DNA of 64,000 nucleotides from Mobula hypostoma (GCF_963921235.1 NC_086097.1:120158001-120222000); one strand, 5' to 3'. Numbered from the stretch's first letter, positions 4,258 to 61,787 are shown. Notes: generated from the letters alone by a model not told the origin. Made by a program: numbers and translations.

Positions 4258-4830
4258 AAACACAAGAAAGTCTTGAGAAGGTGGAAATCCAAAGCAGCAC
4301 ACACAGAATGCTTGAGGAACTCAGCAGGTCAGGCAATGTCTATGGAAAAGTATAAATAGTCAACATTTAGGGCCAAGATCCCTCTTCAGGACTGAGAAGG
4401 AAGGGGTAAGATGCCAGAATAAAAAAGTTGGGGGGCAGGGAAGGGGAAGAAGCTAGCTGGAAGGTGATAGGTGAAGCTAGGTGGGTGGGAAAGGTGAAGG
4501 GCTGGAGAAAAAAGCAGCTGATAGGAGAGGAGAGCGGACAATAGGAGGGGACCCAGGGGAAGTGATAAGCAGGTGAGAAGTGAAAAGTCAAGAGTGTAGA
4601 ATAGAGGAAGTGGGGAGGGGGTGGGAGGTTGTGATTTGTTGGTAGATTTGATCTCCTGAAGGAGAAATCGATATTCATGCTATCAGGTTGGAGTATGTGG
4701 TGTTGTTCCTCCACCCTGAGGGTGACCTCATTTTGGCACAAGAGGAGGCCATGGATTGACTCGTCTGAACAGGAATGGGAATCGAAATTAAAATGATTGG
4801 CCACTGGGAAATTCCGCTTGTTGTGGATGG
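4258..4830 (-). mobile_element. Penelope-like element 3' end (GIY-YIG C-terminus, pyrimidine-rich UTR, degenerate hammerhead)
   Basis: ORF 4367-4846: PVANHFN...HGLLLCQNEVTLRVEEQH...LQPDSMNIDFS. Same terminus as 18756-19900. Confidence 0.8.
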
Positions 4831-5531
4831 TGCGAAACTGCAACATTCCATCCCTTTGAAGAGGAGTGAATTCTCACCAGCTGCTAAGTGGAAGGACTCC
4901 TCATGAATTAACCCCTCAGAATCTGGCACTGGAAGGTTCCACAAAAATGTAACAGCTCTGGAAGCACTGTAGGATACAGAACCTGCTGAGGGTTAAATCT
5001 TAAAACTGTGGAATCACTGCAGCAAGTCAACAATTCCCATAATGGACACATACGATGTGAGCAATAAATTCAGCTTGTAATCATGATGGTTTCTTTGTGA
5101 TACCTTGCTATCAAAGTTCAGCAGCTCCTATTGAATAAGAATGAATGATTTCCTTTTCCATGTCTATCTTGTTAGAATCTTGCAATGCATATTCAAAGTG
5201 CATGGCACTTTGGACCAGTCTCATAGATGGGCAAGATACATAAAGGGATATTATGCAAATAAAAACATAGTCAAGCCAACACATGAAGCGGTATTAGAAC
5301 ATTATCAGCCTTAAATTCTTTCTCCACTCATAAACGTGCTGACAGAAACCACATAAAATGTGTATTTTTTACATTTGTATACTCATTAATTAAAAGAGGA
5401 CATGCATATAGATATAAGCTGTTTTGTAATCCACAGATCTATATCTATTCTACAGTTAGAATAGAGCAAGCAATGAACAATAACATACATTGAAAGACTG
5501 ATGTTTACATGAAAAAAGACCTTGGTTCATT

Positions 5532-5665
5532 AACACAAGAGATTCTGCAGATGCTGGAAATCCAGAGTAACAGACAGAAAACTCTGGAGAAAATTAGCAG
5601 GTTAAGTTGCACCTATGGGGAGGAACAAAGACTTGACGTTTTGGGCTGAGACCCTTCATCAGGAC
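5532..5665 (-). mobile_element. Short stand-alone Penelope-terminus retroposon carrying a hammerhead motif
   Basis: Minus strand reads GTC-CTGATGA-AGGGTCTCAGCCC-AAAACGTC. Flanked by a 9-bp direct repeat TGGTTCATT (5523-5531, 5666-5674). Confidence 0.8.
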
Positions 5666-6115
5666 TGGTTCATTCACATTGTTTCATAGGTTTCTTCAAC
5701 AGGAATAGATCCCACTGAGTATTCAACCGGATACCTAACATTGCTTCTCTGATGTAAGGTTCTAAAGAATGCTCATTGACCTGAAACACAGAAGTTTATT
5801 TCTTCCTCTTGATCCTACTTTGGAGCATTTTCTGTCTATCTTTCAAATTTCCACATTAACATTTACTCTATTGCCCTCACTGTCTGTGTGGACACAGCTA
5901 TGCAGCAAGCTAAATAATTTCTCAAAGCTCAGCTGAAATGGAAGCTTTTTTCAGGGTGTTTAATGAAATCTCTTCTTGTAAAGCTGTACAGAGTTAATCA
6001 AAATATGAATTAAATTCAATACAGAATCAATAATAAACTTGTGGCACAAATAAAATTAATCATAATGCTTTCTTTAAAATATGTCTACTAATATTACTAA
6101 AAACTTAACACTCAC

Positions 6116-6167
6116 CGATCTTGCTGTTTCAAGGGCAAATAAAGTCGATGGAGATCATCGTATGCTT
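6116..6167 (-). CDS. Candidate coding exon of an unidentified host gene, (E)AYDDLHRLYLPLKQQD(R)
   Basis: 52 nt, acceptor cttttactctaag, donor CG|gtgagt. Only one frame is open and it is phase-compatible with the exon at 6253-6329 across an 85-nt GT-AG intron. Confidence 0.45.
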
Positions 6168-6252
6168 CTTAGAGTAAAAGCTAACCCACACAGGAAATGA
6201 TATACAAAACGTTTACATATCAGAAATGATGCTCATGCAAAGTGAGCGGTAC

Positions 6253-6329
6253 CTTTAGAGACAGCCTGGCATCCATAGGAAGTCATACTCAGCAAACAGA
6301 ACAAAAGGTCAAGCATCACTTCACCAAGT
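6253..6329 (-). CDS. Candidate coding exon of an unidentified host gene, LGEVMLDLLFCLLSMTSYGCQAVSK
   Basis: 77 nt, strong acceptor ctattcttcttttgccatag, donor AAG|gtaccg. Phase 2 to phase 1; lies in non-repetitive sequence. Confidence 0.45.
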
Positions 6330-6529
6330 CTATGGCAAAAGAAGAATAGCCTCAGAGACTGGTCTTGAAAACGGTCTTACTACACTGTTTTTAACCATCC
6401 CACTTAGAAACTGTCGGCTTCAATAACATACTTGCTCGTGGTAATGGGTAATGAGCATCCCAGTGACATGGAACTTACATAGAATGACGATTGGGTGAGT
6501 TACGCCTTCTTTATCCGTCCTTCCACTTG

Positions 6530-7050
6530 CAATAAGCAAGGATGTAATGATGAGGCTTTATAAGGCATTGGTCAGATCATGCTTGGAGTATTATGAGTAG
6601 CCTCTTATATAAGAAAAGATGTGCTGGCACTAGAGGAGATTTCAATTCCCACTGCTGCCTGTAAGGAGATTGTACATTCTCCCTGAGACCACGAATGTTT
6701 CCACCAGGTACTCCGGTTTCCTTCCGCAGTCCAAAGACGTACTGCATGGTAGGGTAATTGGTCGTTGTAAATTGTCCTGTGATTAGACTAGGGTTAAAGT
6801 GGGGGTTACAAGGTGGTGAGGCTCAAAGGGGCAGAAGGGCCTGTTCTGCACTGTATCTCGATGAATAAATAAATATGAGGAGCGTCTAATGTTTCTGGTC
6901 CTGTACTCACGGGAGTTTTGGGGGAGGTGGATCTCCCTGAAATTTACTGAATATTGAAGAGCCCAGATAGAGTGCATGCGAAGATGATATTTATTATAGT
7001 AAAACAGAGATAAGGATGAATTTATTTAACCATGGGGTGCTGAATCTGTG
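6530..7050 (+). mobile_element. Decayed CR1 LINE 3' fragments split by a SINE
   Basis: SKDVMMRLYKALVR...LEY-like CR1 ORF2 C-terminal sequence at 6535-6630 resumes at about 6877. Confidence 0.6.
6641..6876 (+). mobile_element. V-SINE / HE1-like tRNA-derived SINE, 5'-truncated
   Basis: V-domain-like core CTCCGGTTTCCTTCCGCAGTCCAAAGACGT, CR1-like tail GGGCCTGTTCTGCACTGTATCTC and (TAAA)n end. Confidence 0.7.
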
Positions 7051-7624
7051 TGGGAATCTAACTGTGTAGGAACTCCGTGTAAACAGATAAAAACATTGGA
7101 GTCTGGACTAAAATTTTCAAATTCTGGAAAATCAATAAACAAGCCTTTTCCTTTCACCTTGACAATTGATAAACATTCTTACCAAAATGTTGTGGATGAA
7201 GTACAGAGGATTATTTTTCCCTTTACTTTACCATGGTGTTTTATCTTCTGCAGAACTAAGCATAAGACTATAAACCGTAAGAGCAGAATTAGGCTATTTG
7301 GTCCGTTGAGTCTGTCCCGTTATTCCACCTTGATTGATTTATTGTACCACTTGACCCAATTATCTTGCCTTTTCTTTGTTGTTTTTGACATCCTAACTAA
7401 TCAAGAATACCCAATGACTTGGCCTCCTCATCTGTCTGTTGCTATGCATTCCAATTGTGTTGAGGGAGGTTTGGTTAGCTCCAGGTAAAAGGTTTCAAGC
7501 AGTATTGTTCATCTATTTTTCACCATGCCCTATCCCACACTCATCCACCTTCCCCTTTACCTGGTTTCACCCTTCACTTGCAGCTTGTACACCTTTGTCC
7601 TTCCCCACAACCCCACACCCACTG

Positions 7625-8185
7625 TCAGAATTAGAATCAGATTTAATATCACTGGCATATGTCATGAAATTTGTTGTTTTGCAGTAGTGAATTACAATAC
7701 ATAATAATAAAACTATAAATTACAATAAGAAGTATATACAAAAAAAATTAAATATGTAGTGCAAAAAAGGGGGGAAAAGTACTGAGGAAGTCTTCATGGG
7801 TTCCTTGTCCATTCAGAAATCTCATAGCAGAGGGGAAGAAGCTGTTGCTGAAATGTTGAGTGGATGTCCTCAGGTTCCTGTACCTCCTCCTTCTTGCTAA
7901 CAATGAGAAGAGAGCATGTCCTGGGTGATCGGGGTCTTTTTTGAGGCATCACCTTTTGATGATGTTCTGGATGCTGGGGAGACTCGTGCCCACGATGGAA
8001 CTTGTTGAGTTTACAACTTTCTGCAGCTTTTTCCGATCCCATGCAGTGTACCCTCCATACCAGATGCTGATGCCACCAGTTAGAATACTATCCATAGTAC
8101 ATCTGTAAAATTTGTAAGTGTCTTTGGTGACATACTAATTCTCCTCAAAATCCTAATGAAATATAGCTGCTGTTATGCTTTCTTT
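7625..8185 (-). mobile_element. Rex1/Babar-type LINE 3' fragment
   Basis: Minus-strand C-terminal RFRNSFFP-like coding remnant and (CTGATT)n-type tail shared with 8190 and 38053. Confidence 0.7.
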
Positions 8186-9144
8186 GGAATTCAGAGTCAG
8201 AATCAAATTTAATATCACCGGTATATGTTGTGAAATTTATTGTCTTTGTGGCAGCACTACAATTAAATAAATGATAAATAAATACCAAGAAAAAAGCTGA
8301 ATTATGTTAAGTGAATATTTATGTCTATTAAATAGTTAAGATACAATAAGTAGTGCAAAGTAACAGAAAAAAGGTAGTGAGTTGTGTTTTGGGGTTCAAT
8401 GTCCATTTAGGAATCAGATGGCAGAGGGGAAGAAGCTGTTCCTGAATCGCCGCGTGTGTGCCTTTAGCTGCTGTACCTCCTTCCGGATGGTAAATGTGTG
8501 AAGAGGACATGTTCTAGGTGTAGGGGATCCTTAATGATAGACGCTGCCTTCTTAAGGCACTGCTCTTGGAAGATGTCTTGGATACTCTGGAGGCTTGCAT
8601 CAATTGTTGGACCCAGGATAGATTCTCAGAGATATTGACCTGCAGGAATTTGAAACTGCTCACCCTTTCCACTCCTGATTCTTCGACGAGGACTAGTGTG
8701 TTTTCCCTCGACTTCCCCAACCTGAAGTCCACCATCAATTCCTTGCTCTTACTGATGTTGAGTGCAATGTTGCTACTGCAACAACACTCAACCAGCCGAT
8801 CTGCCTTGCTCCTGTAGGCCTTCTTGTCACTGTCTGAAATTCTGCCAACAACAGCTACGCTGTCAGCAAATTTATAGATGGTGTTTGAGCTGTGCCTAGC
8901 CACATAATCGTGGGTGTAGAAAGAGTAGTGCTGTAGGCTAAGTGCGCATCCTTGAAGCATTGATAGGCAGCGAGGAGGAGAAGTTATTTCTGACCTGCAC
9001 AGCCTGTGGTATCCCGGTGAGGAAGTCAAGGATCCAGTTGCAGAGGGAGGTACAGAGGCCCAGATTTTGGAGCTTGTTGATTAGCACTGAGGGTTTGATG
9101 GTGTTGAACACTGAACTGTAGTGAATAAACAGCAGCTTGATCTA

Positions 9145-11134: not shown

Positions 11135-11925
11135 ATAGTCATAGTCATGGTCATAGTCATACTTTATTGGTCCTGGGGGAAATCGGTTTTCGTTACAGTT
11201 GCACCATAAATAATAAATAGTAATAAAACCATAAATAGTTAAATAGTAATATGTAAATTATGCCAGGAAATAAGTCCATGAGCAGCCTTTTGGCTCAGGG
11301 TGTCTGACCCTCCAAGAGATGAGTTGTAAGGTTTGATGGCCACAGGCAGGAATGACTTCCTATGACACTCTGTGCTGCATCTCGGTGGAATGAGTCTCTG
11401 GCTGAATGTACTCCTGTGCCCACCCAGTGCATTATGTAGTGATTGGGAAACATTGACCAAGATGGCATGCAACTTAGACAGCATCCTTTTTTCAGACACC
11501 ACCGTGAGAGAGTCCAGTTCCATCCTCACAACATCACTGGCCTTACGGATGAGTTTGTTGATTCTGTTGGTGTCTGCTACCGTCATCCTGCTGCCCCAGC
11601 ACACAACAGCAAACATGATAGCACTGGCCACCACAGACTCGTAGAACATCCTCAGCATCGTCCGGCAGATGTTAAAGGACCTCAGTCTCCTCAGGAAATA
11701 GAGACGGCTCTGACCCTTCTTGTAGACAGTCTCAGTGTTCTTTGACCAGTTGAATTTATTGTCAATTAGTATCCCCAGGTACTTGTAATCCTCCACCATG
11801 TCCACACTGACCTTTGGATGGAAACAGGGGTCACCGGTACCTTAGCTCTCCTCAGGTCTACCACCAGCTCCTTAGTCTTTTTCACATTAAGCTGCAGATA
11901 ATTCTGCTCACACCATGTGACAAAG
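11135..11925 (-). mobile_element. Younger Rex1/Babar LINE 3' end nested in the older Rex1 endonuclease region
   Basis: ORF 11239-11805 (YKYLG...SRLYFLRRLRSF...HRKSFLPVAIK), (ACTATG)n tail, and 5-bp duplication TTGTC at 11130-11134 and 11926-11930. Confidence 0.9.
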
Positions 11926-12309: not shown

Positions 12310-12432
12310 ATCTTGGCCTGAAACATCAACTGCTTATTCCCCTCCATAGATGTTGCCTGCCTGAACTGTTGAAGTCCTCTTGCATTTTGTGTGTGTTACT
12401 CTGGATTTCCAGCATCTGAAGAATATCTTGTA
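12310..12432 (+). mobile_element. Short Penelope-terminus unit with only the 3' half of the hammerhead
   Basis: TCTTGGCCTGAAACATCAACTG...GATTTCCAGCATCTG matches the family terminus. Confidence 0.65.
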
Positions 12433-17204: not shown

Positions 17205-17430
17205 TATAACACATACAAAATGCTGGAGAAACTCAGCAGATCAGACACCATCGATGGAGAGGAATAATCAGTCAATGTTCAGGGCTGTGACCCTTTATTA
17301 TGACTGGAAAAGAAGGGGAAAGAAACTAGAAAAAAAAGGTGAAGGAAAGGGAAGGAGTCTAGCTGGAATGTGACAAGTGAATCCAGGGGGAAGGTAGGTG
17401 GGTGGGGGATTGGAGAAGAAGTGAAAAGCT
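17205..17430 (-). mobile_element. Penelope-like 3' terminus with decayed hammerhead
   Basis: ACATACAAAATGCTGGAGAAACTCAGCAG terminus followed by a purine-rich UTR. Confidence 0.65.
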
Positions 17431-17433
17431 ATA

Positions 17434-17932
17434 TACTCAGTGACCACTCTGTTAGGTACACCTGTGCACCTGCTTGTTAATGTAAATATCTAATCAGTCA
17501 ATCAGGTGGCAGCAGCTCAGTGCATAAAAGCATGCAGACATGGTCAAGCGGTTCAGTTGTTGTTCAGACCAAACATCAAAATGGAGATCTCCGGGATTTT
17601 CACACACAACAGTCTAGAGATTTTAGAGAATGGTGAAAAACACACAAAAAAAATCCACTGAGCAGCAGTTCTGTGGGTGAAAGCACCTTATTAATAAGAT
17701 GTTTTATTAATACCTTAGAGGAGACAGCCAGACTGTTTTAAGCTGAAAAGAAGATGACAGTAACTCAAATAATCATGTGTTAAAACAGTGGCGTGCAGAA
17801 GTGCATCTCTAAAATACAACATGTTGAAAGTTAAAGTGGATGGGCTATAGAAGCAGAAATCCATGAACATACGATACATTCAGTCGCTACTTTATTTTTT
17901 ACAAGAGGTACCTAATAGAGTGGCCACTGAGT
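17434..17932 (+). mobile_element. Non-autonomous Tc1-like transposon
   Basis: Inverted ends ACTCAGTGACCACTCTGTTAGGTAC / GTACCTAATAGAGTGGCCACTGAGT; internal sequence matches 12744-13246. Confidence 0.85.
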
Positions 17933-18688: not shown

Positions 18689-18755
18689 GGCCAGAAAAAT
18701 GTTGGGAAACTGTCCACCTGGCTGGTTGAATGCAATTCCAATAATTAATTGGGAG

Positions 18756-19900
18756 CAATTCGCACAACACGCTGAAGGAACTCAGCAGGTCAGGCAGCAT
18801 CCGTGGAAAGGATGAGTCAACGTTTCGGGCCGGAACCGTTCATCAGGACTGTAGGGGGAAGGGTCAGAGACCCTATAAAGGAGGTGGGGGGAGGGTGAGA
18901 AGGAGAAGGCTAGAAGGTTCCAGGTGAAAAACCAGTAAGGGGAAAGATAAAGGGGTGGGGGAGGGGAAGCAGGGAGGTGATAGGCAGGAAAGGTGAAGAA
19001 GGAATAGGGGAAAACACAATGGGTAGTAAAAGGAGGCGGAACCATGAGGGAGGTGATAGGCAGCTGGGGGAGGGGGCAGAGTGTGATAGGGATAGTGGGA
19101 GGGAGGGGAATGGAATTACCGGAAGTTGGAGTATTCAATGTTCATACCAAGGGGCTGGAGACTACCTAGACGGTATATGAGGTGTTGCTCCTCCAACCTG
19201 AGTTTAGCCTCATCATGGCAGTAGAGGAGGCCATGTATGGACATATCTGAATGGGAATGGGAAGCAAAGTTGAAGTGGGTGGCTACCGGGAGATCCTATC
19301 TGTTCTGACGGACGGAGCCGAGGTGCTCGACGAAGCAGTCCCCCAATCTGCGTCGGGTTTCAACGATGTAGAGGAGGCCGCACTGGGAGCACCGGATGCA
19401 ATAGATGACCCCAACAGACTCACGAGTGAAGTGTTGCCTCACCTGGAAGGACTGTTTGGGGCCCCGATTGGTGGCAAGAGAGGAGGTGTAGGGACATTTG
19501 TAGCTCTTACGTTTACAGGGATAAGTGCCAGGTGGGAGATCCGTGGTGAGGGACGTGTGGATCAGGAAGTCAAGGAGGGACCGATCCCTGTGGAAAGCGG
19601 AGAGGGGTGGAAAGGGAAAGATGTGCTTAGTGGTGGGGTCCTGTTGAAGGTGGCGGAAGTTGCGGAGGATAACGTACTGGATCCGGAGGCTGGTGAAGTG
19701 GTAGGTGAGGACAAGGGGAACTCTGTCCCTGTTGTGGTGGCGGGAGGATGGGGTGAGAGCCAAAGTGCAGAAAATGGAGGAGATGTGGGTGAGGGCATCA
19801 TTGATGACAGCAGAAGGGAAACCACAATCCTTAAAGAAAGAGGACATTTGAGATGTCCTGGAACAGGAAGCCTCATCCTGGGAGCAGATGCGGCGGGAAA
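18756..19900 (-). mobile_element. 5'-truncated Penelope-like element (GIY-YIG endonuclease) with 10-bp TSD
   Basis: ORF 19296-19940 RVPLVLTYH...GVIYCIRCSQCGLLYIVETRRRL..FVEH; TAATTGGGAG at 18746-18755 and 19901-19910. Confidence 0.92.
18815..18851 (-). ncRNA. Minimal type I hammerhead ribozyme (core intact, one helix II mismatch)
   Basis: Minus strand: CAGTC CTGATGA A CGG TTCCGG CCC GAAA C GTT GACT. AGTC/GACT helix I; GUU cleavage triplet. Confidence 0.7.
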
Positions 19901-22444: not shown

Positions 22445-25400
22445 TTAGAAAAGCCTACAGCACAATCCAGGCCTTTCAGCCCACAAAGCTGTCTGAACAT
22501 GGCCTTACCTGAGAAATTACCTAGGGTTACCCATAGCCCTCTAATTTTATGTGCTCCATATACCTGTCTAGGAGTCTCTTAAAAGACCCTATCATCTCTG
22601 CCTGCACCACTGTCACTGGCAGCACATTCCACGCACTCACCACTCTCTGCGTAAAAAACTTAACCCCAATATTTCCTCTGTACCTACTTCCAAGCACCTT
22701 AAAACTATGCCCTCTCGTGCTAGCCATTTCAGCCCTGGGAAAAAGCCTCTGATTATCCACATGATCAATGCATCTCATCATCTTGTACACATCTATCAGG
22801 TCACCTCTCATCCTCCGTCACTCCAAGGAGAAAAGGCCAAATTCACTCAATCTATTCTCATAAGGCATGCTTCCCAATCCAGGCAACATCCTTGTAAATC
22901 TCTTCTGCACCCTTTCTATGATTTCCACGTCATTCCTATAGTGAGGCAACCAGAACTGACCACAGTTCTCCAAGTGGAGCCTGACCAGGGTCCTATGTCG
23001 CTGCAACATTACCTCTCAGCTCCTTAACTCAATCCCATGATTGATGAAGGCCAATGTACCGTATGCTTTCTTAACCACAGAGTCAACCTGCGCAGCAGCT
23101 TTGAGTGTCCTATGGACTCGGACCCCAAGATCCCTCTGATCCTCCACACTGCCAAGAGTCTTACCATTAATACTATATTCTGCCATCATATAAGACCATA
23201 AGACCATAAGACAAAGGAGCAGAAGTCGGCCATTTGGCCCATCGAGTCTGCTCCGCCATTTTATCATGAGCTGATCCATTCTCCCATTTAGTCCCACTCC
23301 CCCGCGTTCGCACCATAACCTTTGATGCCCTGGCTACTCAGATACCTATCAATCTCTGCCTTAAATACACCCAATTACTTGGCGTCCACTGCTGCCCGTG
23401 GCAACAAATTCCATAGATTCACCACCCTCTGACTAAAAAAATTTCTTTGCATCTGTTCTGAATGGGCGCTCTTCAATCCTTAAGTCATGCCCTCTCGCAC
23501 TAGACTCCCCCATCATGGGAAACAACTTTACCATATCCACTCTGTCCATGCCTTTCAACATTTGAAATGTTTCTATGAGGTCCCCCCCATTCTTCTAAAC
23601 TCCAAGGAATACAGTCCAAGAGCGGTCAAACGTTCCTCATATGTTAACCCTCTCATTCCCGGAATCATTCTAGTGAATCTTCTCTGTACCCTCTCCAACG
23701 TCAGCACATCCTTTCTTAAATAAGGAGCCCAAAACTGCCCACAGTACTCCAAATGAGGTCTTAGCAGCGCCTTATAGATCCTCAACGTCACATCCCTGCT
23801 CCTGTACTATATTCCTCTAGAAATGAATGCCAACATTGCATTCGCCTTCTTCACTACCGACTCAACCTGGAGGTTAACCTTAAGAGTATCCTGTACGAGG
23901 ACTCCCAAGTCCCGTTGCATCTCAGAACTTTGAATTCTCTCCCCATTTAAATAATAGTCTGCCCGTTTATTTCTTCTGCCAAAGTGCATAACCATACACT
24001 TTACAACATTGTATTTCATTTGCCACTTCTTTGCCCATTCTTTCAATCTATCCAAGTCTCTCTGTAGACTCTTCGTTTCCTCAGCACTACCGGCCCCTCC
24101 ACCTATCTTCGTATTGTCAGCAAACTTAGCCACAAAGCCATCTATTCCATAATCCAAATCATTGATGTACAACGTAAAAATAAGTGGCTCCAACTCGGAT
24201 CCCTGTGGAACACCACTGGTAACCGCAGCCAACCAGAATAGGATCCCTTTATTCCCACTCCCTGTTTCCTGCCAATCAGTCAACACCCTATCCATGTATG
24301 TAACTTTCCTGTAATTCCATGGGCTCTTATCTTGTTAAGTAGCCTCATGTTTGGCACCTTGTCAAAGGCCTTCTGAAAATCCAAATATACAACATCCACT
24401 GTATCTCCCTTGTCTAGCCTACTTGCAATTTCCTCAAAAAATTGTCATAGGTTTGTCAGGCAGGATTTTCCTTTAAGGAAACCATGCTGATTTCTGCCTA
24501 TCTTGTCTTATGCCTCCAGGTACTCCATAACCTAATTTTTGACAATCAACTCCAACAACTTCCCAACCACCAATGTCAAGCTAAGAGGTCTTTAATTTCA
24601 TTTTTGCTTCCTTTCTCCCTTCTTAAATAGTGGAGTGACATTTGCAATTTTCCAGTCCTCCGGAACCATGCCAGAATTTACCGACTTTTGAAAGATCATA
24701 GCTAATGCCTCAGTAATCTCCACAGCTACTTCCTTCAGAACACGAAGGTGCATTCCATCTCGTCCAGGAGATTTATCTACCTCTAGACTATTCTACTTCC
24801 TGAGTACGTTCTCTGTCATAATTGTGACTGTGCACACTTCTCTTCCCTGCCACCTTTGAGTGTCCGGTATACTGCTGATGTCTTCCTCAGTGAAGACTGA
24901 TGCAAAATACTCATTCAGTTCCTCTGCCATCTCCTTATCTTCCATTACAATTTCTCCAGCATCATTTTCTATCGGTCCTATATCTACTCTCACCTGTCTT
25001 TTACTCTTTATATACTTGAAAAAGCTTTTAGTATCCTCTTTGATATTATTTGCTAGCTTCCTTTCATAGTTTCTCTTTTCCCTCTTAATGACCTTCTTAG
25101 TTTCCTTTTGTAAGCTTTTAAAAACTTCCCAATCCTCTGTCTTCCCACTACTTTTTGCCTTATTGTATGCCCTCCCTTTTTCTTTAACTTTGGCTTTGAC
25201 TTCTCTTGTCAGCCACGGTTGCATCCTTTTTCCATTCGAAAATTTCTTCTCTTTTGGAATATACCTGTCTTGCACCTTCCTCACTTATCACATAAACTCC
25301 AGCCACTGCTGCTCTGCCATCCTTCCAGCCGGTGTCCCTTTCCAGTCAACTTTGGCCAGTTCCTCTCTCATGCCACTACAATTTCCTTTACTCCACTGAA

Positions 25401-27574: not shown

Positions 27575-27910
27575 TATACATCAGAGTAACAGGCCATTCT
27601 GGCCCAATGAGCCTGCAGCACCCAGATACACACAAATGACCAATTAACCCACTAACCCTCCCCATCCTGACGAAGGGTCTCAGCCATAGATGCTGCCTGA
27701 ACTGCTGAGGTCCTGCACCATTTTGTGTGTGTTACTGTTGATTTCCAGAATCTGCAAAATCTCTCGAATTTATAATCTACTAATGCCTAGATCTTTGGGA
27801 TGTCTGAGGAAAGCCAAATAGTTATAGCAAGAGTGTTTAAACCCCTTACAGACAGTGGTGGGAATTGAACCCAGGTTACCAGTACTGTAAACCATTATGC
27901 TATCCTTCAC
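27575..27910 (-). mobile_element. Decayed V-SINE interrupted by a plus-strand hammerhead unit (about 27662-27768)
   Basis: B-box complement GGAATTGAACCC at about 27862. The insert begins TCCTGACGAAGGGTCTCAGCC with the GAAA segment deleted. Confidence 0.6.
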
Positions 27911-28950: not shown

Positions 28951-28968
28951 AAGCCTATTTTAAAATTA

Positions 28969-29102
28969 AACACAGAGATTCTGCAGATGCTGGAAACCCA
29001 GAGCAATACTCACAGAGTGCTGCAGGAACTCAGCAGTTCAGGTAGCATCTACGGAGAGGAATAAACAGTAGACATTTCCGGCCCAGATCCTTTATCAGGA
29101 CT
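28969..29102 (-). mobile_element. Short stand-alone Penelope-terminus/hammerhead unit, decayed
   Basis: Minus strand AGTCCTGATAAAGGATCTGGGCCGGAAATGTCTACTG...GTTTCCAGCATCTGCAGAATCTC. Confidence 0.75.
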
Positions 29103-32089: not shown

Positions 32090-32400
32090 TCGAAAACTCA
32101 AGAAATACTGCAGTTGTTTGAAATCTGGAGTAACACACACTAAATGCTGGAGCAACTCAGCTGGTCTGGTGCCATCTATATCTATGGAGAGGAATAAACC
32201 GTTGACATTTTGGGCTGAGGCCTTTCATCAGGAGATATGAACAATCAACCTGCTGGAGGAACTCAACAGGTCAAGCAGCATTTGTGTGGGTAAAGTGCTG
32301 TCGATATTTCAAGTCAAGTACCTGCATCAGGACCTGCTGTGTTCCTCCAGCAGATTATTTACTGAGCCAGATATCAACATCTGCAGTCTCTTTGTTTCCA
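32090..32400 (-). mobile_element. Two adjacent short Penelope-terminus/hammerhead units; the second is partly palindromic
   Basis: Minus strand CCTGATGAAAGGCCTCAGCCCAAAATGTC (about 32232-32204) and GTCCTGATGCAGGTACTTGACTTGAAATATCGAC (about 32333-32300). Confidence 0.7.
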
Positions 32401-43621: not shown

Positions 43622-44180
43622 TGTAATGACCTGGGAAAGGTTTCCCTGCTAATGTAAAGTTTCTTCTGTAGCGCAGTGTTTGGGTTATGACTAGAGATAA
43701 CGGGGGCTTTGGAATGTGCACTGGCCAATGAGGGGAGATGTTTCCCTTTCTTGTGTGGCCAAGCAAAGGTTCTGGGGGCTTTTGTTCAGCAGAAGATGGA
43801 GGGAGAAGAATCCAGAATGGGGAAGTTGTGGTCTGAAAGATGGAGTGAACTTGGCATGGGGGCGGAAGTAGACGACTGGAGGGAAGATCGATGGAGAATG
43901 AACAAACAGGAAAGCCGTGAGCTCCAACATTGCACATTAGACTGTTTCATGAGAATGGGACCTTTTTCTTTTTTGTTTCTTTACTAACCCTATAGTCAAA
44001 TTAAGAATTATAAAGCTCAATCATTTAATTGCATATTTTGTACTGTTTGTTATTTCATTGTACTGATTTGTAACAGGGGAACACATCATGCATCATCCAC
44101 CCAACAAGATTATTCAAGTTTGGCTGGGCCAGAGGCTGCCTTCCCCTTGATTAAGCCACTAGCCACACCTGAGGGTTACA
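43622..44180 (+). repeat. 5' LTR (559 bp)
   Basis: TGTAAT...GTTACA; aligns with 49670-50207. Confidence 0.93.
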
Positions 44181-44184
44181 ATTG

Positions 44185-44203: not shown

Positions 44204-44279
44204 TGACTTCGTTGGATGCTGTGTGATTACCCTGCGCATTGAACCAGTGTGGTAGATATTCACACTCCAGATGAATCGT

Positions 44280-49655: not shown

Positions 49656-49669
49656 GGTGGGGGGGAAAG
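49656..49669 (+). promoter_or_regulatory. Polypurine tract
   Basis: GGTGGGGGGGAAAG abutting the 3' LTR. Confidence 0.85.
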
Positions 49670-50207
49670 TGTAACTATCTGGGAAAGGTTTCCCTGGTCA
49701 TGTAAGGGTTTCTCTGTAATGCAGTGTTTGGGTTATAACGGGGGCTTTGGAATGTGTGCTGGCCATTGAGGGGGATGATTTTCTTTCTTGTGTGCCCGAG
49801 CAAAGGTTTTGTGGGCTTTTGTTCGGCGGAAGATTGAGAAAGAAGATTTTCAGAATGGGAAAGTCGTAGTCTGCTAGACGGAGTGGACTTGGAATGTGGT
49901 CGGGACTCGACGACCGGTGGGGGAACGAACAGACGGGAAAACCGTGAGTTCCAACATTGCACATGAGACTGTTTCATGAGAATGGGCACTTTTTCTTTTT
50001 TGTTTCTTTACTAACCCTATTGAAAAATTAACAATTATAAAGCTCAATCGTTTAATTGCATATTTGTATTGTTTGTTATTTCATGGACCTGATTTGTAAC
50101 AGGGGAACACATCACACAGCATCCACCCAAACAAGATTACTCAAGTTTGGCTGGGCCGGAAGCTGTCTTCATCCAGATTAAACCACGAGCCGAACCTGAG
50201 GGTTACA
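49670..50207 (+). repeat. 3' LTR (538 bp)
   Basis: TGTAAC...GTTACA; aligns with 43622-44180. Confidence 0.93.
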
Positions 50208-50569
50208 ATGTTAAAAGTTACATTGTTGTGTACATTAACAGGACCATATTGCTAAGGAAAACTAAAAAAATGACATATCTGTTTAGAAGCTGTTCTGGTA
50301 TTTATGTATGACCTTCAGCAGGTCAAATATCTAATTAAATGCATTGGAGATAAACACCTTCCTTAATTTCACATGTTTACTGTCTCCTGACAAACAAAAT
50401 GTTCTACTGCAAGGTTAATAGAACTATAGTAAATGCTCAAGCAATTTCACAACATCGTCTATTCTCTTCGAAGCATTTCTCTTAGATGTCATTGGGAAAT
50501 TCTCTTTTTCTCTTCTTTGATCTGACATGTGCTTTCTTAAACCTCTTGTCAAAATATGTTTATAAGATC

Positions 50570-53330
50570 ATAAGACATATGAGAAGAATTAGGCTACCTG
50601 ACCCATTGAGTTTTCTCTGCCATGCCATCATGGCTGATTTATTAACAATTTAATTTCTATTCCCCTGCTTCCTTCCTGTAACCTTTGATGCCCAGACTAA
50701 ATAAGAATCTATCAAACTCTGCTTTAAGTATACTCAATGACTTAGCCTCCACAGCAATCCGTGGCAATTAGCTCCACAGATTCACCACACTCCGGCTAAA
50801 GAAATTCCTCCTGATCTCTGCTGTAAATGAACATTCCTCTATTCTGAGGCTGTGCCCTCAGGTCCTAGACACACCCACTATAGAAAACATACTCACCACA
50901 TCCACTCTGTCTATGCCTTTCAGTATTCAATAGATTTCAACGAGATCCTCCTCATTCTTTTAAACTCCGGCAAGTACAGGCACAGAGCCGTCAAATGTTC
51001 CTCATACGTTAAACCTTTCATTCCCGGAATCATTCTCGTGAACTTCCTCTGAACCCTCTCCAATGTCAGCACAAAATTGCTCATGATATTTCAAGTTCAT
51101 TCTGACCAGGGTCTTATAAAGCCTTAGCATTATATCCTTGCCCTTATATTCTAGTCCTCTCAAAATGAATGCTAGCACTGCATATGCCTTCTTTAACACT
51201 GACTCAATCTGCAAGTAACATTTAAGGAATGCTCCATGAGGACTCCCAAGTCGCTTTGTACCTTGTATTTTTGAATTTTCTCCCCATTTAGAAAATAGTC
51301 TATGCCTTTATTCCTTCTATCATAGTGAATATCATACACTTCCCTACACTATATTCGATCTGCCATTTATTTGCCCAATCTCCCAAATCTGTCTGCATCC
51401 TTCTGCAGACTCCCTGCTTCCTCAAAACTACTTATATTTGTATTCTCTCAAACTAAGTCACAAAGCTATGAATTCCATCATCGGAATCATTGACATACCT
51501 TATAATGTGAAAAGAAGCAGTGTCAGTACCAAGCCTTGAAGAACACCACTTGTCACATCAGCCAACAGAAAAGGCCCCCTAATAGAACATAGAACATGGA
51601 ATAGTACAGCACAGTACAGGTCCTTCAGCCCACAATGTTATGCCGACCCTCAAACCCTGCCTCCCATATAAGTCCCAACTTAAATTCCTTCATATACCTG
51701 TCTAGTAGTCTCTTAAATTTCACTAGTGTATCTGCCTCCACCACTGACTGTGGCAGTCATACAACGCACCAACCACTCTCTGAGTAAAAAACCTTCCTCT
51801 AATGTCCCCCTTGAACTTCCCGCTCCTTACCTTAAAGCCATGTCCTCTTGTATTGAGCAGTGGTGCCCTGGGGAAGAGGCGCTGGCTATCCACTCTATCT
51901 ATTCCTCTTATTATCTTGTATGCCCTTATCATGTCTCCTCTCATCCTCCTTCTCTCCAAAGAGTAAAGCCCTAGCTTCCTTAATCTCTGATCATAATCCA
52001 TACTCTCTAAACCAGGCAGCATCCTGGTAAATCTCCTCTATACCCTTTCCAATGCTTCCACATCCTTCCTATAGTGAGGCGACCAGAACTGGACACAATA
52101 CTCCAAGAGTGGCCTAACCAGAGTTTTATAGAGCTGCATCATTACATCGTGACTCTTAAACTCTGCCCCTCGACTTATGAAAGCTAACACCCCATAAGCT
52201 TTCTTAACTACCCTATCCACCTGTGAAGCAACTTTCAGGGATCTGTGGACATGTACCCCCAGATCCCTCTGCTCCTCTACACTACCAAGTATCCTGCCAT
52301 TTACTTTGTACTCTGCCTTGGAGTTTGTCCTTCCAAAGTGTACCACCTCACACTTCTCTGGGTTGAACTCCATCTGCCACTTCTCAGCCCACTTTTGCAT
52401 CCTATCAATGTCTCTCTGCAATCTTTACACTATGTCTCTCTACACTATCCTCAACACCACCAATCTTCGTGTTTTCTGCAAACTTGCCAACCCACCCTTC
52501 TATCTGATTCTTTCACTACTGCCATTCAGCCAATATTCTATCCATGCTAGTATCTTTTCTCTAATACCAAGGACTTAGCTTGTTAAGCAGCCTCATGTGT
52601 GGCGCCGTGTCAAGGCCTTCTGAGAATCCTAGTAGACAATATCCACTGAATCTCTTTTGTTTCTCCTGCCTCTTATTGGCTCAAAGAATTCCATTAGATT
52701 TATGATGCAAGAAAACCATGCTGATTTTGGCCTATTTTATCATGCACCACTGAATAACCTGAAGCCTTATGCTTAAAACAGGACTCCAATATCTTCCCAA
52801 TCACTGAAGTCAAGCTAACTAGTCTATAATTTCCTTTTTGTGCCTCCCTCCCTTGAAAAGAGGAGAGGCATTTGCAATTTCCCAGTGTTCCTGAACTATT
52901 CCAGAATTTAGTAGTTCATGAATCAGAATGCTGGGGTATAGTCCATCTGTTCTAGGTGACTTATCTACTTTCAGAACTTTCAGCTTTCCAAGCACTTCCT
53001 CCTCAGTAATAGCGATTAGACTCACTTCTGTCCCTGAACACTCTCAAGTTACTGGCATACTGCTAGTGTCTTCCATAGTGAAGATTGACAATGAAATATG
53101 CTTATGTTTGTCCGCCATTTCTTTATTCCCCCATTAATATCTCACTACCATCATTTTCCGGCGGTCCAATATACACTCTCAACTCTCTTTTACTCTTTAT
53201 AGGTCTGAAATAATTTTTGGTATCCTCTGTGATATTATTGGCTAGCTTACCTTCATATTTCAACTTTTTTCTCCTTATGGCTATTTTAGTTGCCTTTTAT
53301 TGCCTTTTATTGGTTTTTAAAAACTTCCCA
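50570..53330 (-). mobile_element. Decayed CR1 LINE hosting a younger CR1 3' end (about 51581-52500)
   Basis: Host ORFs 51002-51214 and 52819-53025; nested ORFs 52038-52421 and 51723-52022 with a (TGTTCTA)n tail at about 51581. Confidence 0.88.
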
Positions 53331-53350
53331 AAAAAAAATATTTTTTTGCT

Positions 53351-54020
53351 AGCAACACACGCAAAATGCTGGAGGAACACAGCAGGCCAGGCAGCATCTA
53401 TGGGAAAAAAGTACAGTTGACCTTTGGCAGGACTGGAGAAAAAAGGCTGAGGAGTAGGTGTAAAAGGTGGGTGAGGGGAGAGAGCAACACAGGGTGATAG
53501 GTGAAACCTGAAGGGGGAGGGATGAAGTAAAGTGCTGGGAAGTTGATTGGTGAAAGAGATACAAGGTTGGAGAAATGGGGAGTCTGATAGAAGAGGACAG
53601 AAGGCCATGGAAGAAAGAAAAGGAGGGAGTGCACCAGAGGGAGGTGGTGAGTGGGCAAGAAGATAATGTGAGAGAGGGAAAGGGGGATGGGAAATAGAGA
53701 AGGAGAGGGAGGGGGGCATTCATGGAATTTTGAGAAATCAATGTTCATGTCATCATGTTGGTGGCTACCTAGTTGGAATATAAGGTGTTGTTCCTCCAAA
53801 CTAAGTGTGGAGGAGGCCATGGATAGACATATCAGAACAGCAATAGGAAGTGGAATTAAATTGGTGGCCACTGGGAGATCCTGCTTTTCCTTCTGACTTT
53901 TTCAGTAGGTTCTCAGCGAAGCAGTCTCCCAATCTACTTTGGGTCTCTCCAACATACAGGATGCCACACCGTCAGCACCAGATACAGTATATGACCCCAG
54001 CAGACTCACAAGTGAATATT
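53351..54020 (-). mobile_element. Penelope-like element 3' portion with the hammerhead core deleted
   Basis: LEEQHLIFQLGS.Q...MNIDFS in ORF 53398-53871; ESAGVIYCIWC..CGILYVGET near 54010-53945. Confidence 0.85.
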
Positions 54021-54104
54021 CTGGAAGGTTCCAGAAGACTGAAAAATTTACAAGTATCACTTGACTCTTCAGGAAGGGTGAGAGGCAGAAGAAAGGAAAC
54101 TCTA

Positions 54105-55775: not shown

Positions 55776-55799
55776 AACGAGAATGTCTTTAAAGAGAGT

Positions 55800-56585: not shown

Positions 56586-56619
56586 AGGAAAGATGTAAAT
56601 TACCAATTTATTAGATGCA

Positions 56620-57945
56620 GGAGTGGAACCCCTTGATTGGTGAAAGAAGTAAAGGGCTAGAGAAGGGGGAATCTGACAGGAGAGGACAGAGTTCCATGAA
56701 AGAAAGGGAAGGTGGAGGAGCACCACAGGGAGGTTATAGGCAGTAAAGAAATAAGGTGAGAAGGGGAAATGGGAATGGGGAATGGTGAAGATGAGGAGGG
56801 CAATTATAGGAAGTTTGAGAAATCAACATTCGTGCCATCAGGTTGGAGGCTACCCAGATGGAATACAAAGTGCAGCCCTCTTACCTTGAGAGTGGCTCTA
56901 TGGTGGCAGTTGAGGAGGCCGTGGACCGACATGTTGGAACGGTAATAAGAAAAAGAATTGAATTGGGTGACTACCGGGGGTCCCATTTTGTGTGGCAGAT
57001 GGAGCGAAGGCACTTGGCAGAAGGACTGACTGGAGCCCTGAATGATAGTGAGGGGAGAGGTGTAGGGGCAGGCGTGTCATTTGTTCTGCTTGCAAGGATA
57101 AGTACTGGGAGGGAGATCAGTGGAGAGGGACAAATGGACAAGCAAGTCACATAGGAAGCGATCCCTGCAGAAAGTAGAAAGTGGGGGGACGGGGGAGGGA
57201 AAGATGTGCTTGGTGATGGGATCCCATTGGAGATGGTGGTAATTATGGAAAATTATGTGCTGGATGCCCTGGTGGGGTGGCGGGTGGATGGATTGAGGGC
57301 AGACGTTCATGAAGTTGGAAAGTTAAGAGTGAGGGCAGTACTAATGGCAGAGTAAGGAAAACCCCTTTCCTTGAAGGAGGAGGATCTCTCATTAGTTCTG
57401 GAATGAAAGTCTCATCCCGAGAGCAGATACAATGGGGCCAAAGGAATTAAGGAAAGGAATGGCATTTTTACAAGCAACAGGGTGGGAAGATGTATTTTTC
57501 AGATGCTGAGGGAAGCAGTGAGTTGAGTAAATATACCAGTAGATAAACTCTCCAAAGATAGACACAGAGAGATCGAGAAAGGGATGGGAAATACCAGAAA
57601 TGGACCAGGTAAATTTGAGGGCAGGGTGGGAGTTGGAGGCAAGGTAAATGAAGTCAACAACCTCAGCATGGGTGCAGGAAGCAGCACCAATGCAGTCGTC
57701 AATGTAACATTTGAGTAATCAGGGGATGATACCAGTGTAGGCTTCGAACATAGACTGTTCCATGTAAACGTCAAAAAAGTAGGCATAGCTGGAACCCATG
57801 CAATTGCCCATGGCTACACCTTTTGTTTAAAGGAAGTGGGAGGAGCTAAAGAAGAAATTATTGAGAGTGAGGACCAGTTCTGCTAAACAGAGGAGAGTGG
57901 TGGTGGAGGAGAATTGGATGGGTCTGATGTCCAGAAAGAAGAGGT
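56620..57945 (-). mobile_element. Penelope-like element fragment (RT C-terminus through GIY-YIG)
   Basis: GVAMG (about 57820), YIDDCIGAAS (about 57706-57678), and ORFs 57077-57310 and 56804-57013 (LGSLQPDGTNVDFS). Confidence 0.85.
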
Positions 57946-58462
57946 TTCCTCTGAGGCTGGGTGGGACTACAACCAGAGATTAGGGGTCAAAGGTCAAAGA
58001 TGAGAAGTTTAAGCGGAACATAAGGGGTAACTAATTCACTTAGAGGATTTGTGAGAGTGTGGAACGAGCTGCCAGCACAAGTGGTGCATGCGAGCCTGAT
58101 TTCAACATTGAAACCTATAGAAAGGCCAAGATAGAGTGGATGTGAAGATGATGTTTCTAATAATTGAGGAATCTAGGACCAGAGGGCACAGCCTCAGAAT
58201 ACAAGGCTAGAGCTAAGGAGGAATTCCTTTAGTTAGGGGTGGTGAATCTTTTAGAATTCATTGCAACAGATGGCTGCAGAGCATGAGTCATTGGCTATAT
58301 TTAAGGTGGAGGGTGATTGATTCTTGGTAGACAAGGGTGTCAAAGGTTATGGGGCGAAGACAGGAGAATGGGGTTGATATGGATAATATATTAGCCATGA
58401 TCAAATAGTGGAGCAGACTTGATAGGCTGAATGGCCTAATTCTGATCCTTATGGTCTTATGT
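57945..58462 (+). mobile_element. CR1 3' fragments
   Basis: RVWNELPAQVV- and ESRTRGHSLRI-like remnants; CR1 UTR and (TGGTCTTA)-type tail. Confidence 0.75.
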
Positions 58463-58802
58463 TCTAAAACAAAATGTAATTTCTTCAAGAAAAAACATAC
58501 ATGTGAAGGTAATTGATTAAGTAATATTTAAATTACATTTATAAAATAAACCTATAGTTACATTAGTTATTGATGAAGATAAAAGGCAGAAGAAATTATG
58601 CAACAGAAACTAAGTATTGTGGTTACAAACTATTTAAGCATAATAGCAGTAATTCTGAAGTAGGCTGGAAAATAACTAATGTAAAGTGACTGTAGAACAG
58701 TTATCCTTACACTCATTCAATAAAAAATAATAATACTTATTACTAAGTGTTTTTTTGCGATTATCAGAGCCATAACTAAAAGCCAAGACAGATTCAGAAG
58801 TA

Positions 58803-59031
58803 ACACATGTCAAAGTTGCTGGTGAACGCAGCAGGCCAGGCAGCATCTCTAGGAAGAGGTACAGTCGACAATACGGGCCGTGACCCTTCTTTCAGTTAGT
58901 CCTGACGAAGGGTCTCGGCCCGAAACGTCGACTGTACCTCTTCCTAGAGATGCTGCCTGGCCTGCTGCATTCACCAGCAACTTTGATGTGTGTTGCTTGA
59001 ATTTCCAGCATCTGCAGAATTCCTCGTGTTT
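58803..59031 (+). mobile_element. Palindromic short Penelope-terminus retroposon with 15-bp TSD
   Basis: Inverted arms 58802-58889 / 58907-58994 (81 of 88 complementary); ACAGATTCAGAAGTA at 58788-58802 and 59032-59046. Confidence 0.9.
58898..58933 (+). ncRNA. Intact minimal type I hammerhead ribozyme
   Basis: AGTC | CTGACGA | A GGG TCTCGG CCC | GAAA | C GTC | GACT; predicted cleavage after C58929. Confidence 0.8.
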
Positions 59032-59046
59032 ACAGATTCAGAAGTA

Positions 59047-59142
59047 CTCATGAAGGGTCTCAGCCTGAAACGTCCACTGTTCATTCGTCTCCATAAAGCT
59101 GCATAACCTGCTGAGTTCTTCCAGCATCTTATGTGTGTTACA
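59047..59142 (+). mobile_element. Older short hammerhead unit at the same target site
   Basis: CTCATGAAGGGTCTCAGCCTGAAACGTCCACTG...; followed by ACAGATTCATAAG (59143-59155). Confidence 0.8.
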
Positions 59143-59739
59143 ACAGATTCATAAGGGGAAGATTCTGCCTGACACATCTCACCTGAGACATTGACAAACC
59201 AGACTGGATATGAAAAATCTTACCACAGAATGAGGCTAAATGGAAAAGGATATTGAATTGACTGTAACTCAGGGTATGATTACATCTTCTCCTTGAGGCC
59301 AGTGCAAGCTTGAATTCCAAAAGATTTCAGATAAATTTCTCAGGAAAGGCCATTCATCAAACTCAAAACTTTACAGCTCGAAGGAACACAGGGCTAGAAA
59401 ACAATGAATAATTATTTAAAAAGCTATACCAAATTGATTGGATAACTTTCCCGGTACTTGGTTTTGTGAGTACAATTTGATTCTCTAACACTGGCCACTG
59501 TTTTGGAAATGCCACTCTGATTGCATCTGGGTCTGATATGGAAGGATCACTGCACAAGATTGCTAAAAGTTGACATCTTCAAAAGGCAATACTTCAAAAA
59601 GACGGCATCCATCTTTAAGGACACCCATCACCCATAACCTGCCTTATTCTAATTACTACCTTCAGGGAGGAGACACAGGAACCTGAAGATCCACTCTCCA
59701 CTTTTTAGGAACAGCTTCTTCCCCTACAACACATTATAT

Positions 59740-60212
59740 TCCATCTGGGTAGCCTCCAATGGCATGGTTGGCAATTTCTCAAACTTTCGGTAATGCCTCG
59801 CCCCCGCCCTTCACCATTCCCCAAACCTTTTTTCCTCTCTCATCTTATCTCTTTGTCTGTGCATCACCTGCCTCTGGTGCTCCTTACCCTTCTTCTTTCT
59901 TCCATGGCCTTCAGTCCTCTCCTATTATATTCCCCGTTATCCAGCCCTGTATCCCTTTCACCTATCACTTCTCATCTCTTTACTTCACCACTCCTCCACT
60001 CCTGGATTCACCCTTCACCTTGTGCTTCTCGCTCCCCTCCCTGCACCTTTTAAATCTACTCCTTATCAATTTTTCTCCAGCCCTTCTAAACGGTTTTAAC
60101 CTGAAGCATCGACTGCACTCTTTTTCATCGGTACTGCCTGGCCTGCTGAGTTCCTCCAGCATTTTGCGTGTGTTGCTTGGACTTCCAGCATCTGCAGATT
60201 TTCTGTTGTTCA
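59740..60212 (+). mobile_element. Penelope-like 3' end with decayed hammerhead, preceded by a Rex1 fragment (about 59575-59730)
   Basis: FHLGSLQ remnant, pyrimidine-rich UTR and terminus ...TTCCAGCATCTGCAGATTTTC. Confidence 0.8.
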
Positions 60213-61787
60213 TACTACTGCTGGACTCTTCTTAGCAAACACAGTCGAGAGAGATTATTTTTCTGTCCCTCAGAACAATCTTAATTTTAATTATAAAAAT
60301 ATCTTTATCCTCTGTAACTTCATTTGTTTCCAACTTTATCATCCAGCTAGTAAAAAAGAAATGGTGCATTGCTGTATTGAGCCAGGGCGTGATTACTGGA
60401 CAATAGAAAAATTCTATTTAGTATTTAACCAAAGATGCCTTCCATTGCCATTGGTACTCTGAGAACTAAAATAACAAGGCACATCTTTAAACAAACTTGT
60501 CTTTATTAATGATAAATGACAAAACCAAATATGATTTTCTGAAAAAAAAGTAGTGTGATGTACAACAATTCCGCCAGTGGAGGCAATGTACTTGCAGTTG
60601 TTATCTTGCCAGGATCTACTTCATGCCTTCAGGAAAAAGATAACAAAATCACAAATATCATTTTTCACTCGCGTTGCTGTGCGTTAACCAGGTGAACTGG
60701 CTTAAAGATTGTTAACCTCAGGCTTGGCATGACATTTTACATGTCCTTGGCAACCTGTTGATTTCTTCTGCACCCCAGACAGGCCAAATGTTTGCAGTTA
60801 CATGAGCATCTATATTTGGCATCTATGACATGGTGTTTAATTAGACACCGGCATCACAGTCACAGATAGGCCTTTATTCCCCAAACACATAATTAACTAC
60901 TGCACTCTGCAAGCTACTTATCCAAAACAATAAACCCGTTATTCTTCCTTTTGGTCAATAATTATAAATACAACATCTATGTTGGTGGGGAAAAGTTATT
61001 TGCATAGGAAATATAAGTAGTAATTTTTTCTGTGTTAAGTATGATGTTCAAAAGCACGAGAGATTCTGCAGTCACTGGAAAGCCAGAGCAACACGAACAC
61101 ACACACAATGTTGGACAAACTATTTTATGTGATACTCTAGATTCCCAGTATTTTCACCATCTCTTGTATTTGTGATTTGTTGCTCCATGGTGAAATGTCT
61201 TTGAAATATAGTATGCCTACCCTGAGGAAGTTTAAATCTTCTCTTGACTTCCTCCTGTATTTTATATATGGCATTAAAATATGTTCTCCTGTAACTAATT
61301 CATCTATTGATTGGAACAGCTTTTATCTATGTATTTTATTCGGACTCCTCTATTAGACACAGCAACATTAACTTATATCTTTGCAGCTACTTAATATTTT
61401 ACAATGTTAAGAGTATTTTACAACATTTAACAGTAACAAACAACAGATTATGTAAGGACATATTTGGAGATTAGGCTAGGAAATACTTGGAAAAATGAAT
61501 AAATGTTGAAGATAGGAGCAAAAGTAGAAAATAATTTAAATAAAAAAGAGTGTGAGTCAGCTATACCCAGTTTGAGTTGGCTCCTCAGTTCTACAAAGTC
61601 TGGTTTATTAACCCTCTCAACCCCATTCTGCCTTCTCTCCATATCTTTTGACACACTTACTAATCAAGAACCTATCAATCTCCATTTTGTGTACACCCAA
61701 ATTCTTGGCCTCCACGGCTGCCTGTGGCAATAACTTCCATGGATTCACCGGCCTCCGGCTAAAGAAATTTCTCCTCATCTGTGTTCC

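Follow-up and report, generated by a model that had tools for sequence, protein, structure and literature searches.

Penelope-like elements (PLEs) carry a minimal hammerhead motif in their pseudo-long terminal repeats (pLTRs), and dispersed single minimal hammerheads, which number thousands per genome in coelacanth and Xenopus, have been ascribed to truncated copies of these elements (Cervera and de la Pena 2014, PMC4209133). An optional PLE tail of 30-40 nt has also been described (PMC8557442), and in an element from Anolis it is made through initiation by the reverse transcriptase (RT) at two adjacent internal sites (PMC11167929). How PLEs regenerate the pLTR and the tail is still open (PMC2377424, PMC11167929). 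Here we analyse a stretch of 64,000 nucleotides from the ray Mobula hypostoma (GCF_963921235.1 NC_086097.1:120158001-120222000; the whole stretch is called the window below), in which a first-pass annotation had described a dense family of short, stand-alone hammerhead retroposons, likened to retrozymes or to short interspersed elements (SINEs). Judged from its sequence, the repeat is the 3' pLTR end of a Neptune-type PLE, consisting of the minimal hammerhead plus an optional tail of about 35 nt, and 6 of its 14 insertions have their 5' ends clustered at the first base of hammerhead helix I.

The search profile was built from six window copies of the terminus, and ten Markov-resampled windows served as control. 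The search of the 64-kb window returned 16 termini at 17.9-128.9 bits plus one weak match at 10.1 bits, the best control score being 5.7 bits, and recovered all 14 of the terminus positions listed in the first-pass annotation. The 16 termini resolve into 14 insertions, about one per 4.6 kb of window, two of which are head-to-head inverted pairs (58795/58898 and 32250/32330). Nine insertions are stubs and five extend into the 3' untranslated region (UTR) or coding sequence; since one of these five, at 17205, holds UTR only, ten insertions have no adjacent coding sequence, where at least seven had been claimed. PLE pieces make up about 8% of the window, and the copies diverge by 11-32% from the majority sequence. 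Both target-site duplications (TSDs) proposed earlier hold: that of 9 bp at 5523/5666 can be read directly in the sequence, and that of 15 bp at 58788/59032 is exact. Two further duplications of 13 bp, each with one mismatch, surround the stub at 59043-59142 and the long copy at 18752-19898. A candidate 12-bp duplication at 27662, where 8 of 12 bases agree by eye, is weak, and an automatic duplication search gave nothing convincing at 12311, 17205, 4259, 53351, 60088, 61053, 32250 and 28968. Rfam gave no match at the gathering threshold, and the terminus motif had no match in metagenome scans.

In the long copies the same terminus is fused to a 3' UTR and to GIY-YIG coding sequence. The 257 codons of the copy at 18752-19898 align to residues 193-449 of a Hypanus sabinus protein (P0001) with 77% identity, and a 200-residue query from this longest copy matches a Hypanus sabinus protein with 73% identity over 99% of its length. 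Seven of the nine protein matches come from rays and two from sharks, the best being from Hypanus and Mobula. The succession of an RT and, at the C terminus, a GIY-YIG endonuclease in one frame is seen through the alignment to P0001 and through the domains of a relative (P0005), in which GIY-YIG lies above the cut-off and RVT_1 below it, the relatives having a GIY-YIG score and one of them an RVT_1 score too; the window PLE fragments taken alone match no Pfam family. A Cys linker (CX2-5CxxC) between RT and endonuclease, as given for Neptune and Nematis (PMC8557442), is visible in the relatives, and the window copy retains two of its three cysteines; the clade name Neptune is taken from this motif. 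The window contains no full-length partial-tandem copy (pLTR, open reading frame (ORF), pLTR), and alignment of the protein against metagenomes produced 235 pattern matches and no confirmed relative. Public contigs from two DNA runs, 195,296 from X1 and 153,222 from X5, were placed on 58700-60300 at 80% likeness, and the family is therefore very abundant in related genomes, although contig depth does not equal copy number, and no ratio of long to short copies was taken from it. X5 contigs run into the insertions at 58803 and 59043, both of which appear to be shared by the two contig-source organisms.

Read along the ribozyme strand, the terminus has, in this order, the 5' arm of helix I, CTGATGA, a single extra base, a short helix II, GAAAC-GTC and the 3' arm of helix I, after which about 65 or about 100 further bases follow; helix III is loopless. 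This is a minimal type I hammerhead within a pLTR, with 75% of its cells paired as compared with 14-40% when slid. The 5' ends of the 14 insertions were called by hand as offsets from the first base of helix I, giving 0, 0, +1, +1, +2, -4, -12, +14, +85, -150, -350, -440, -590 and -1047, so that 6 of 14 insertions start within a 7-nt window from -4 to +2. Under four smooth length models (two exponential and two log-normal), a cluster of this kind anywhere has P = 7 to 181 per 200,000. A smooth length distribution, as random 5' truncation would produce and as the first-pass annotation had set against its own proposal, is therefore not what we see. The 60 nt upstream of +1 were then compared among the copies, the tail-only stub being left out. 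In all five long copies they are homologous (scores 50-78, a level that none of 500 shuffles reaches); the eight short or inverted copies tested all score at background (3-23; background 95th percentile 29). Because the flanks of the stubs lie at background and the UTRs of the long copies align, the start boundaries are not an alignment artefact. Separately, a common start of 4259 and 60088 at profile position 582-583 was rejected as a training artefact, and offsets were reset from alignments.

The 3' ends fall into two main classes. Nine of the 15 aligned termini reach about +135 and match 28-34 of 35-36 tail columns (long end below), five end near +100 (short end), and one divergent arm ends earlier. 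The two classes lie about 35 nt apart and each occurs in long and in short copies; in the inverted pair at 58803 there is one class per arm. The family thus has precise common ends, in its six clustered starts and its two 3' end classes, together with the optional tail and the inverted 5' copies that characterize PLEs. Since the two end classes correspond to the PLE tail, the stubs bear the mark of a PLE RT, whatever their source RNA. The earlier suggestion that the copies were mobilised by the resident Penelope machinery stands to this extent: they are PLE-derived and show duplications of 9-15 bp, two 3' end classes and inverted pairs. As an observation apart, both inverted pairs of the window have the short end on one arm and the tail on the other. 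The PLE copies of the window are the following.

4259..4830, minus strand: long 5'-truncated Neptune-type PLE copy with the C-terminal end of the endonuclease and a pyrimidine-rich 3' UTR; minimal hammerhead with one core change; long end with tail; tblastn match to P0001 residues 387-446 (E 1e-14)
5532..5666, minus strand: 135-nt stub whose first base is also that of helix I (+1), with long end and a TSD of 9 bp (5523/5666)
12311..12431, plus strand: stub lacking the first half of the hammerhead, with its start at about +14, or near -4 plus an internal deletion; long end; no duplication found by the search
17205..17460, minus strand: UTR-only copy with about 150 nt of 3' UTR and no coding sequence; short end; two subfamily marks in common with most stubs
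18752..19898, minus strand: longest copy; its 257 codons span the thumb, the Cys linker and the GIY-YIG endonuclease and are broken by one internal stop; 3' UTR present, core of the hammerhead intact, short end; 13-bp duplication (one mismatch)
27662..27771, plus strand: stub with its start at about -4 and with the long end; an internal deletion of 27 nt removes part of the core; lies within another repeat, both halves of which match the copy at 6641-6873
28968..29102, minus strand: stub of 135 nt starting at +1; long end; weak duplication only, AT-rich flanks
32095..32233, minus strand: stub that starts at about +3 and follows directly downstream of the 32250 unit; long end
32240..32394, both strands: inverted pair, head to head, that belongs to a more divergent subfamily; the minus arm starts at about +2 and has the short end, the plus arm (32330-32394) carries the tail region
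53351..54026, minus strand: long 5'-truncated copy with endonuclease end, 3' UTR and a hammerhead with a 16-nt deletion; short end
56634..57950, minus strand: PLE body fragment of 1.3 kb, from RT to 3' UTR, with the terminus missing; outside the 14 insertions; adjoins a different long interspersed element (LINE) fragment
58803..59031, both strands: head-to-head inverted pair with 15-bp duplication (58788/59032); plus arm starting at about -12 with intact core and long end, minus arm with short end
59043..59142, plus strand: stub of 100 nt starting at +1 to +3; short end; 13-bp duplication (one mismatch); its upstream target sequence is occupied by the 58803 pair
59725..60211, plus strand: long 5'-truncated copy with the last ORF codons, 3' UTR and a decayed hammerhead; long end; 74% identical to 53351-53791
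61053..61121, minus strand: tail-only stub of about 50-70 nt, no hammerhead

Two places in this list show copies in close contact. At 58788-59154 a younger inverted PLE pair sits exactly in the upstream target sequence of an older stub, with the result that one 13-15 bp target is present in three copies; it is possible that the endonuclease of this PLE re-used one target site there. At 32095-32394 a stub directly adjoins an inverted pair from the more divergent subfamily.

The ribozymes themselves are mostly decayed. All 11 core bases are kept in 2 of the 15 aligned termini, the long copy at 18747 and the arm at 58898, five more have one core change, and the remaining eight have at least four changes or a deletion. 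A strict hammerhead descriptor finds 58898 and 18850 among its five window matches. Selection on the fold was not detected in these termini, pairing and covariation being not above shuffles (162 and 197 of 500). With an intact core in only 2 of 15 aligned termini, and with helix pairing no better than in shuffles, the very large ribozyme load that had been proposed for the genome is overstated as a functional load; it consists of ribozyme fossils, not working ribozymes. No cleavage was seen in vitro with a single minimal hammerhead of Schistosoma (PMC4209133).

How could such stubs arise? We give about an even chance to a reading in which they are by-products of the autonomous element, made by internal priming on the first pLTR of its RNA and run-off at a fixed 5' end. 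The RT would likely be primed at the target nick and start inside the first terminal repeat of the RNA, and copying would run off the 5' end of the RNA. This end, which may be either a transcription start or a processed end, is predicted to be fixed and to lie where helix I begins. If the RNA begins at helix I, the product would be 100 or 135 nt long, with ends exactly as seen. The long copies would arise when the RT primes on the downstream repeat or jumps to it, and the stubs would mostly be dead on arrival. In vitro, the Anolis protein nicks AT-rich DNA and its RT starts in the RNA downstream of the hammerhead; a shortened RNA 5' end leads to shorter products, and hammerhead cleavage is unnecessary (PMC11167929).

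Several points weigh against this reading. The offsets were called by hand, they are only 14, and the nulls were of our own choosing; the adjacent copies at 32095 and 32250 may be one event, and copies also start at -12 and at about -150, so that a start at +1 is no requirement. An RNA end at this position is itself a prediction. In Drosophila virilis transcription starts 46 nt ahead of an intron of 75 nt (PMC2377424), the end of which is at helix I (PMC4209133), and therefore about 120 nt upstream, not at +1. In our family, a pyrimidine tract and a YAG precede helix I in all six copies with upstream sequence, so that these bases, as far as their letters tell, could be a splice acceptor; a splice joint at the YAG is absent among the 15 contig joints listed (there are 1,875 more), from which no conclusion on splicing is drawn. 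An initiator-like match at +1 agrees, by eye, with the initiator consensus exactly in three of six copies and with one mismatch in the other three; we gave it no weight, as the motif is short and shares bases with helix I and the YAG. Roughly in favour of the reading, the six loose contig ends listed per DNA run include those before +1 (at 58898), with 801 contigs in X1 and 749 in X5, and their consensus, compared by hand, resembles the UTR of 17205 and of 4259 in 24 and 23 of 30 letters. The agreement of this consensus is 0.39; where every contig runs on into homologous sequence it is 0.61. We read the loose ends, very roughly, as a mixture, about a quarter to a half being long copies and the rest unrelated flanks. 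This signal is confounded, since the UTR of the reference copy departs from that of the main subfamily exactly there, and the counting was saturated. Finally, three columns set five of six stubs apart from most long copies, and the clustering of the stub or long label on a tree of the termini is borderline (three changes; 42-46 of 500 shuffles as low) and leans to subfamily structure.

These last two observations touch on the most serious of the alternatives, which we nevertheless regard as unlikely, namely that the stubs form a separate non-autonomous family with one or a few master copies of 100-135 nt, whose internal promoter would start transcription at +1 and whose RNA the Neptune protein would copy in trans. 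Such a family would account for the sharp 5' start and for the stubs having duplications of their own, and the three columns would be its marks, each being found in at most one long or inverted copy. However, two of these marks are also present in the UTR-bearing copy at 17205, the third is present in the 58898 arm, and starts at +1/+2 occur in two different subfamilies, the 5530 type and the divergent 32250 type. The UTR of 17205 is 72% like that of 4259, a copy which reaches the endonuclease end, and the contigs contain many UTR-bearing copies of the stubs' subfamily. From the marks in 17205 and the starts in two subfamilies, by-products of autonomous subfamilies are favoured. The tree (13 rows by 135 columns, with the 58795 arm and the tail-only stub left out) has little power, none of its ten inner branches being supported, and there is no supported stub clade; mean identity is 73.1% between short copies, 72.1% between long copies and 71.1% between long and short, so that short copies are only 2 points closer to each other than to long ones. 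An A box plus B box pair of RNA polymerase III, allowing one mismatch to the consensus on either strand, is absent from all six stubs scanned. What keeps a separate family in play is that internal priming would make any motif-bearing RNA a substrate (PMC11167929), and that pLTR sequences are enough for trans mobilisation in Adineta (PMC3846280).

Another explanation, which we consider rather doubtful, is a truncation hot spot that involves no transcription start, in which, with a tandem or read-through RNA as template, enzyme drop-off, RNA trimming or splicing would occur where the folded hammerhead meets the pyrimidine tract, the junction being sealed by microhomology. The boundary lies exactly at the 5' edge of helix I, microhomologies of 2-3 nt are found at 5530 and 59043, and both inverted pairs join in or near the hammerhead; the pyrimidine tract and YAG stand before it in 6 of 6 copies, at the point where the D. 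virilis intron ends (PMC4209133). Yet a polymerase moving 3' to 5' would meet the helix I 3' arm first, and a stall would be expected near +36 and not at +1. A spliced template, for its part, should leave a shared first exon, whereas the stub flanks, compared by eye, differ from one another and abut the duplications.

It is very improbable that the stubs are retrozyme monomers, that is, tandem units which self-cleave, circularise and are re-inserted by the PLE protein, even though retrozyme families related to PLE pLTRs and with dispersed monomers are reported from vertebrates, including one chondrichthyan (preprint 10.64898/2026.07.22.740005). Tandem Repeats Finder reports seven rows in the window, none of them of this family, and the adjacent copies at 32095/32250 and 58898/59043 are not head-to-tail units, since they either come from different subfamilies or are nested at a single target. 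No copy of the 14 has its start at the cleavage site (+32), nor is any of them circularly permuted. The loopless helix III is of the minimal type, in place of the canonical type I hammerhead with a helix III and the units bounded by self-cleavage that define retrozymes, and at 100-135 nt the stubs are shorter than the 150-450 bp units described (PMC7229834). As there are neither tandem units in the window nor polymerase III box pairs in the six stubs scanned, both likenesses given by the first-pass annotation, to retrozymes and to SINEs, fail. Plain random 5' truncation of ordinary Penelope copies is hardly tenable, for although PLE insertions are for the most part 5'-truncated and have one terminal repeat (preprint 10.64898/2026.07.22.740005; PMC4209133) and 8 of our 14 starts are scattered from +85 to -1047, the other six lie within 7 nt, which smooth models yield at most 181 times per 200,000, and their boundaries are no alignment artefact.

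The window holds other repeats besides this family. Direct repeats of about 560 bp with 82% identity, at 43622-44182 and 49670-50209, enclose 5.5 kb of higher-GC sequence; the unit resembles a decayed long terminal repeat (LTR) element, and the five ORFs inside it match no Pfam family. On the minus strand, 1812-2543 is an open frame of 243 residues with a SCAN domain (E 1e-10), which we take to be the likely gag region of a Gypsy-type element, and 11239-11841 is a frame with a match to ALKBH8_N (E 1e-11) that adjoins LINE-like sequence and is probably a retroelement end, not a host gene. Further, 51582-52502 and 62713-63631 form a 925-bp inverted pair of LINE 3' ends with 92% identity, much younger than the other LINE fragments of the window, and RVT_1 frames lie at 23807, 25989 and 34858.

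Among described systems, the closest are the Neptune PLEs themselves (PMC4209133; PMC8557442), with which our family has several features in common: upstream of the terminus lie an RT thumb, a Cys linker and, at the C terminus, a GIY-YIG; the hammerhead is a minimal one of type I, in which an extra base precedes helix II and helix III is palindromic and loopless; and there are the optional tail of 30-40 nt, the head-to-head inverted copies and the occurrence of motifs mostly as dispersed single copies. The available portions of those papers (2014; Craig et al. 2021) differ in describing variable 5' truncation, and give neither a peak of starts at helix I nor a ray family. Neither such a peak nor a PLE strong-stop step was found in the literature searched, mostly non-subscription, and figure S2 of PMC11167929 may already show a 5' peak. 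That study concerns Poseidon PAc of Anolis carolinensis (Frangieh et al. 2024, PMC11167929), which is alike in that two internal RT start sites give the tail, the hammerhead lies upstream, cleavage is unnecessary for insertion and the product shortens with the RNA 5' end. It differs in belonging to another clade, Poseidon, and in that its authors assume a multi-copy mRNA and, in the text available, do not discuss fixed-length run-off insertions; in our family, moreover, the matching ATG opens no conserved long frame. Animal non-LTR retrozymes (Cervera and de la Pena 2020, PMC7229834; Li, Clavereau and Pollet 2026 preprint) are likewise non-coding, with a type I hammerhead, related to PLE pLTRs and presumably moved by PLE proteins, and dispersed monomers of them exist. 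They are, however, head-to-tail units of 150-450 bp with circular RNA and canonical hammerheads (PMC7229834), whereas the stubs of the window are single, 100-135 nt long, of the minimal type, mostly decayed, and end at the PLE tail sites.

Set beside these systems, the family is ordinary: it is real and mostly known, and in its fixed 5' start it offers a modest, testable clue to the way in which PLEs copy their ends. A very abundant family with a sharp start would be a natural record of where an RNA begins or where copying stops, and in repeat libraries such stubs may go under the label of SINEs or of retrozyme monomers. In LTR elements, minus-strand strong-stop DNA is made by priming near the RNA 5' end, copying to that end and transfer to the 3' repeat. 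We put forward, as a tentative idea and one we would not expect to hold, that PLEs make a strong-stop product as well, in which priming in the first pLTR of a monomeric RNA would be followed by copying to helix I and by a jump to the 3' pLTR for the ORF, and failed jumps would integrate as stubs of 100 or 135 nt. If this were true, one step would explain the tail, the regenerated pLTR and the mass of solo hammerheads in animal genomes, and stubs may be the commonest PLE product in rays. The two processes would be alike in yielding a short product of fixed length, as the stubs are; they would differ in that here a nick in the target DNA primes, without tRNA primer, RNase H or integrase, and that strand transfer is carried over by analogy only.

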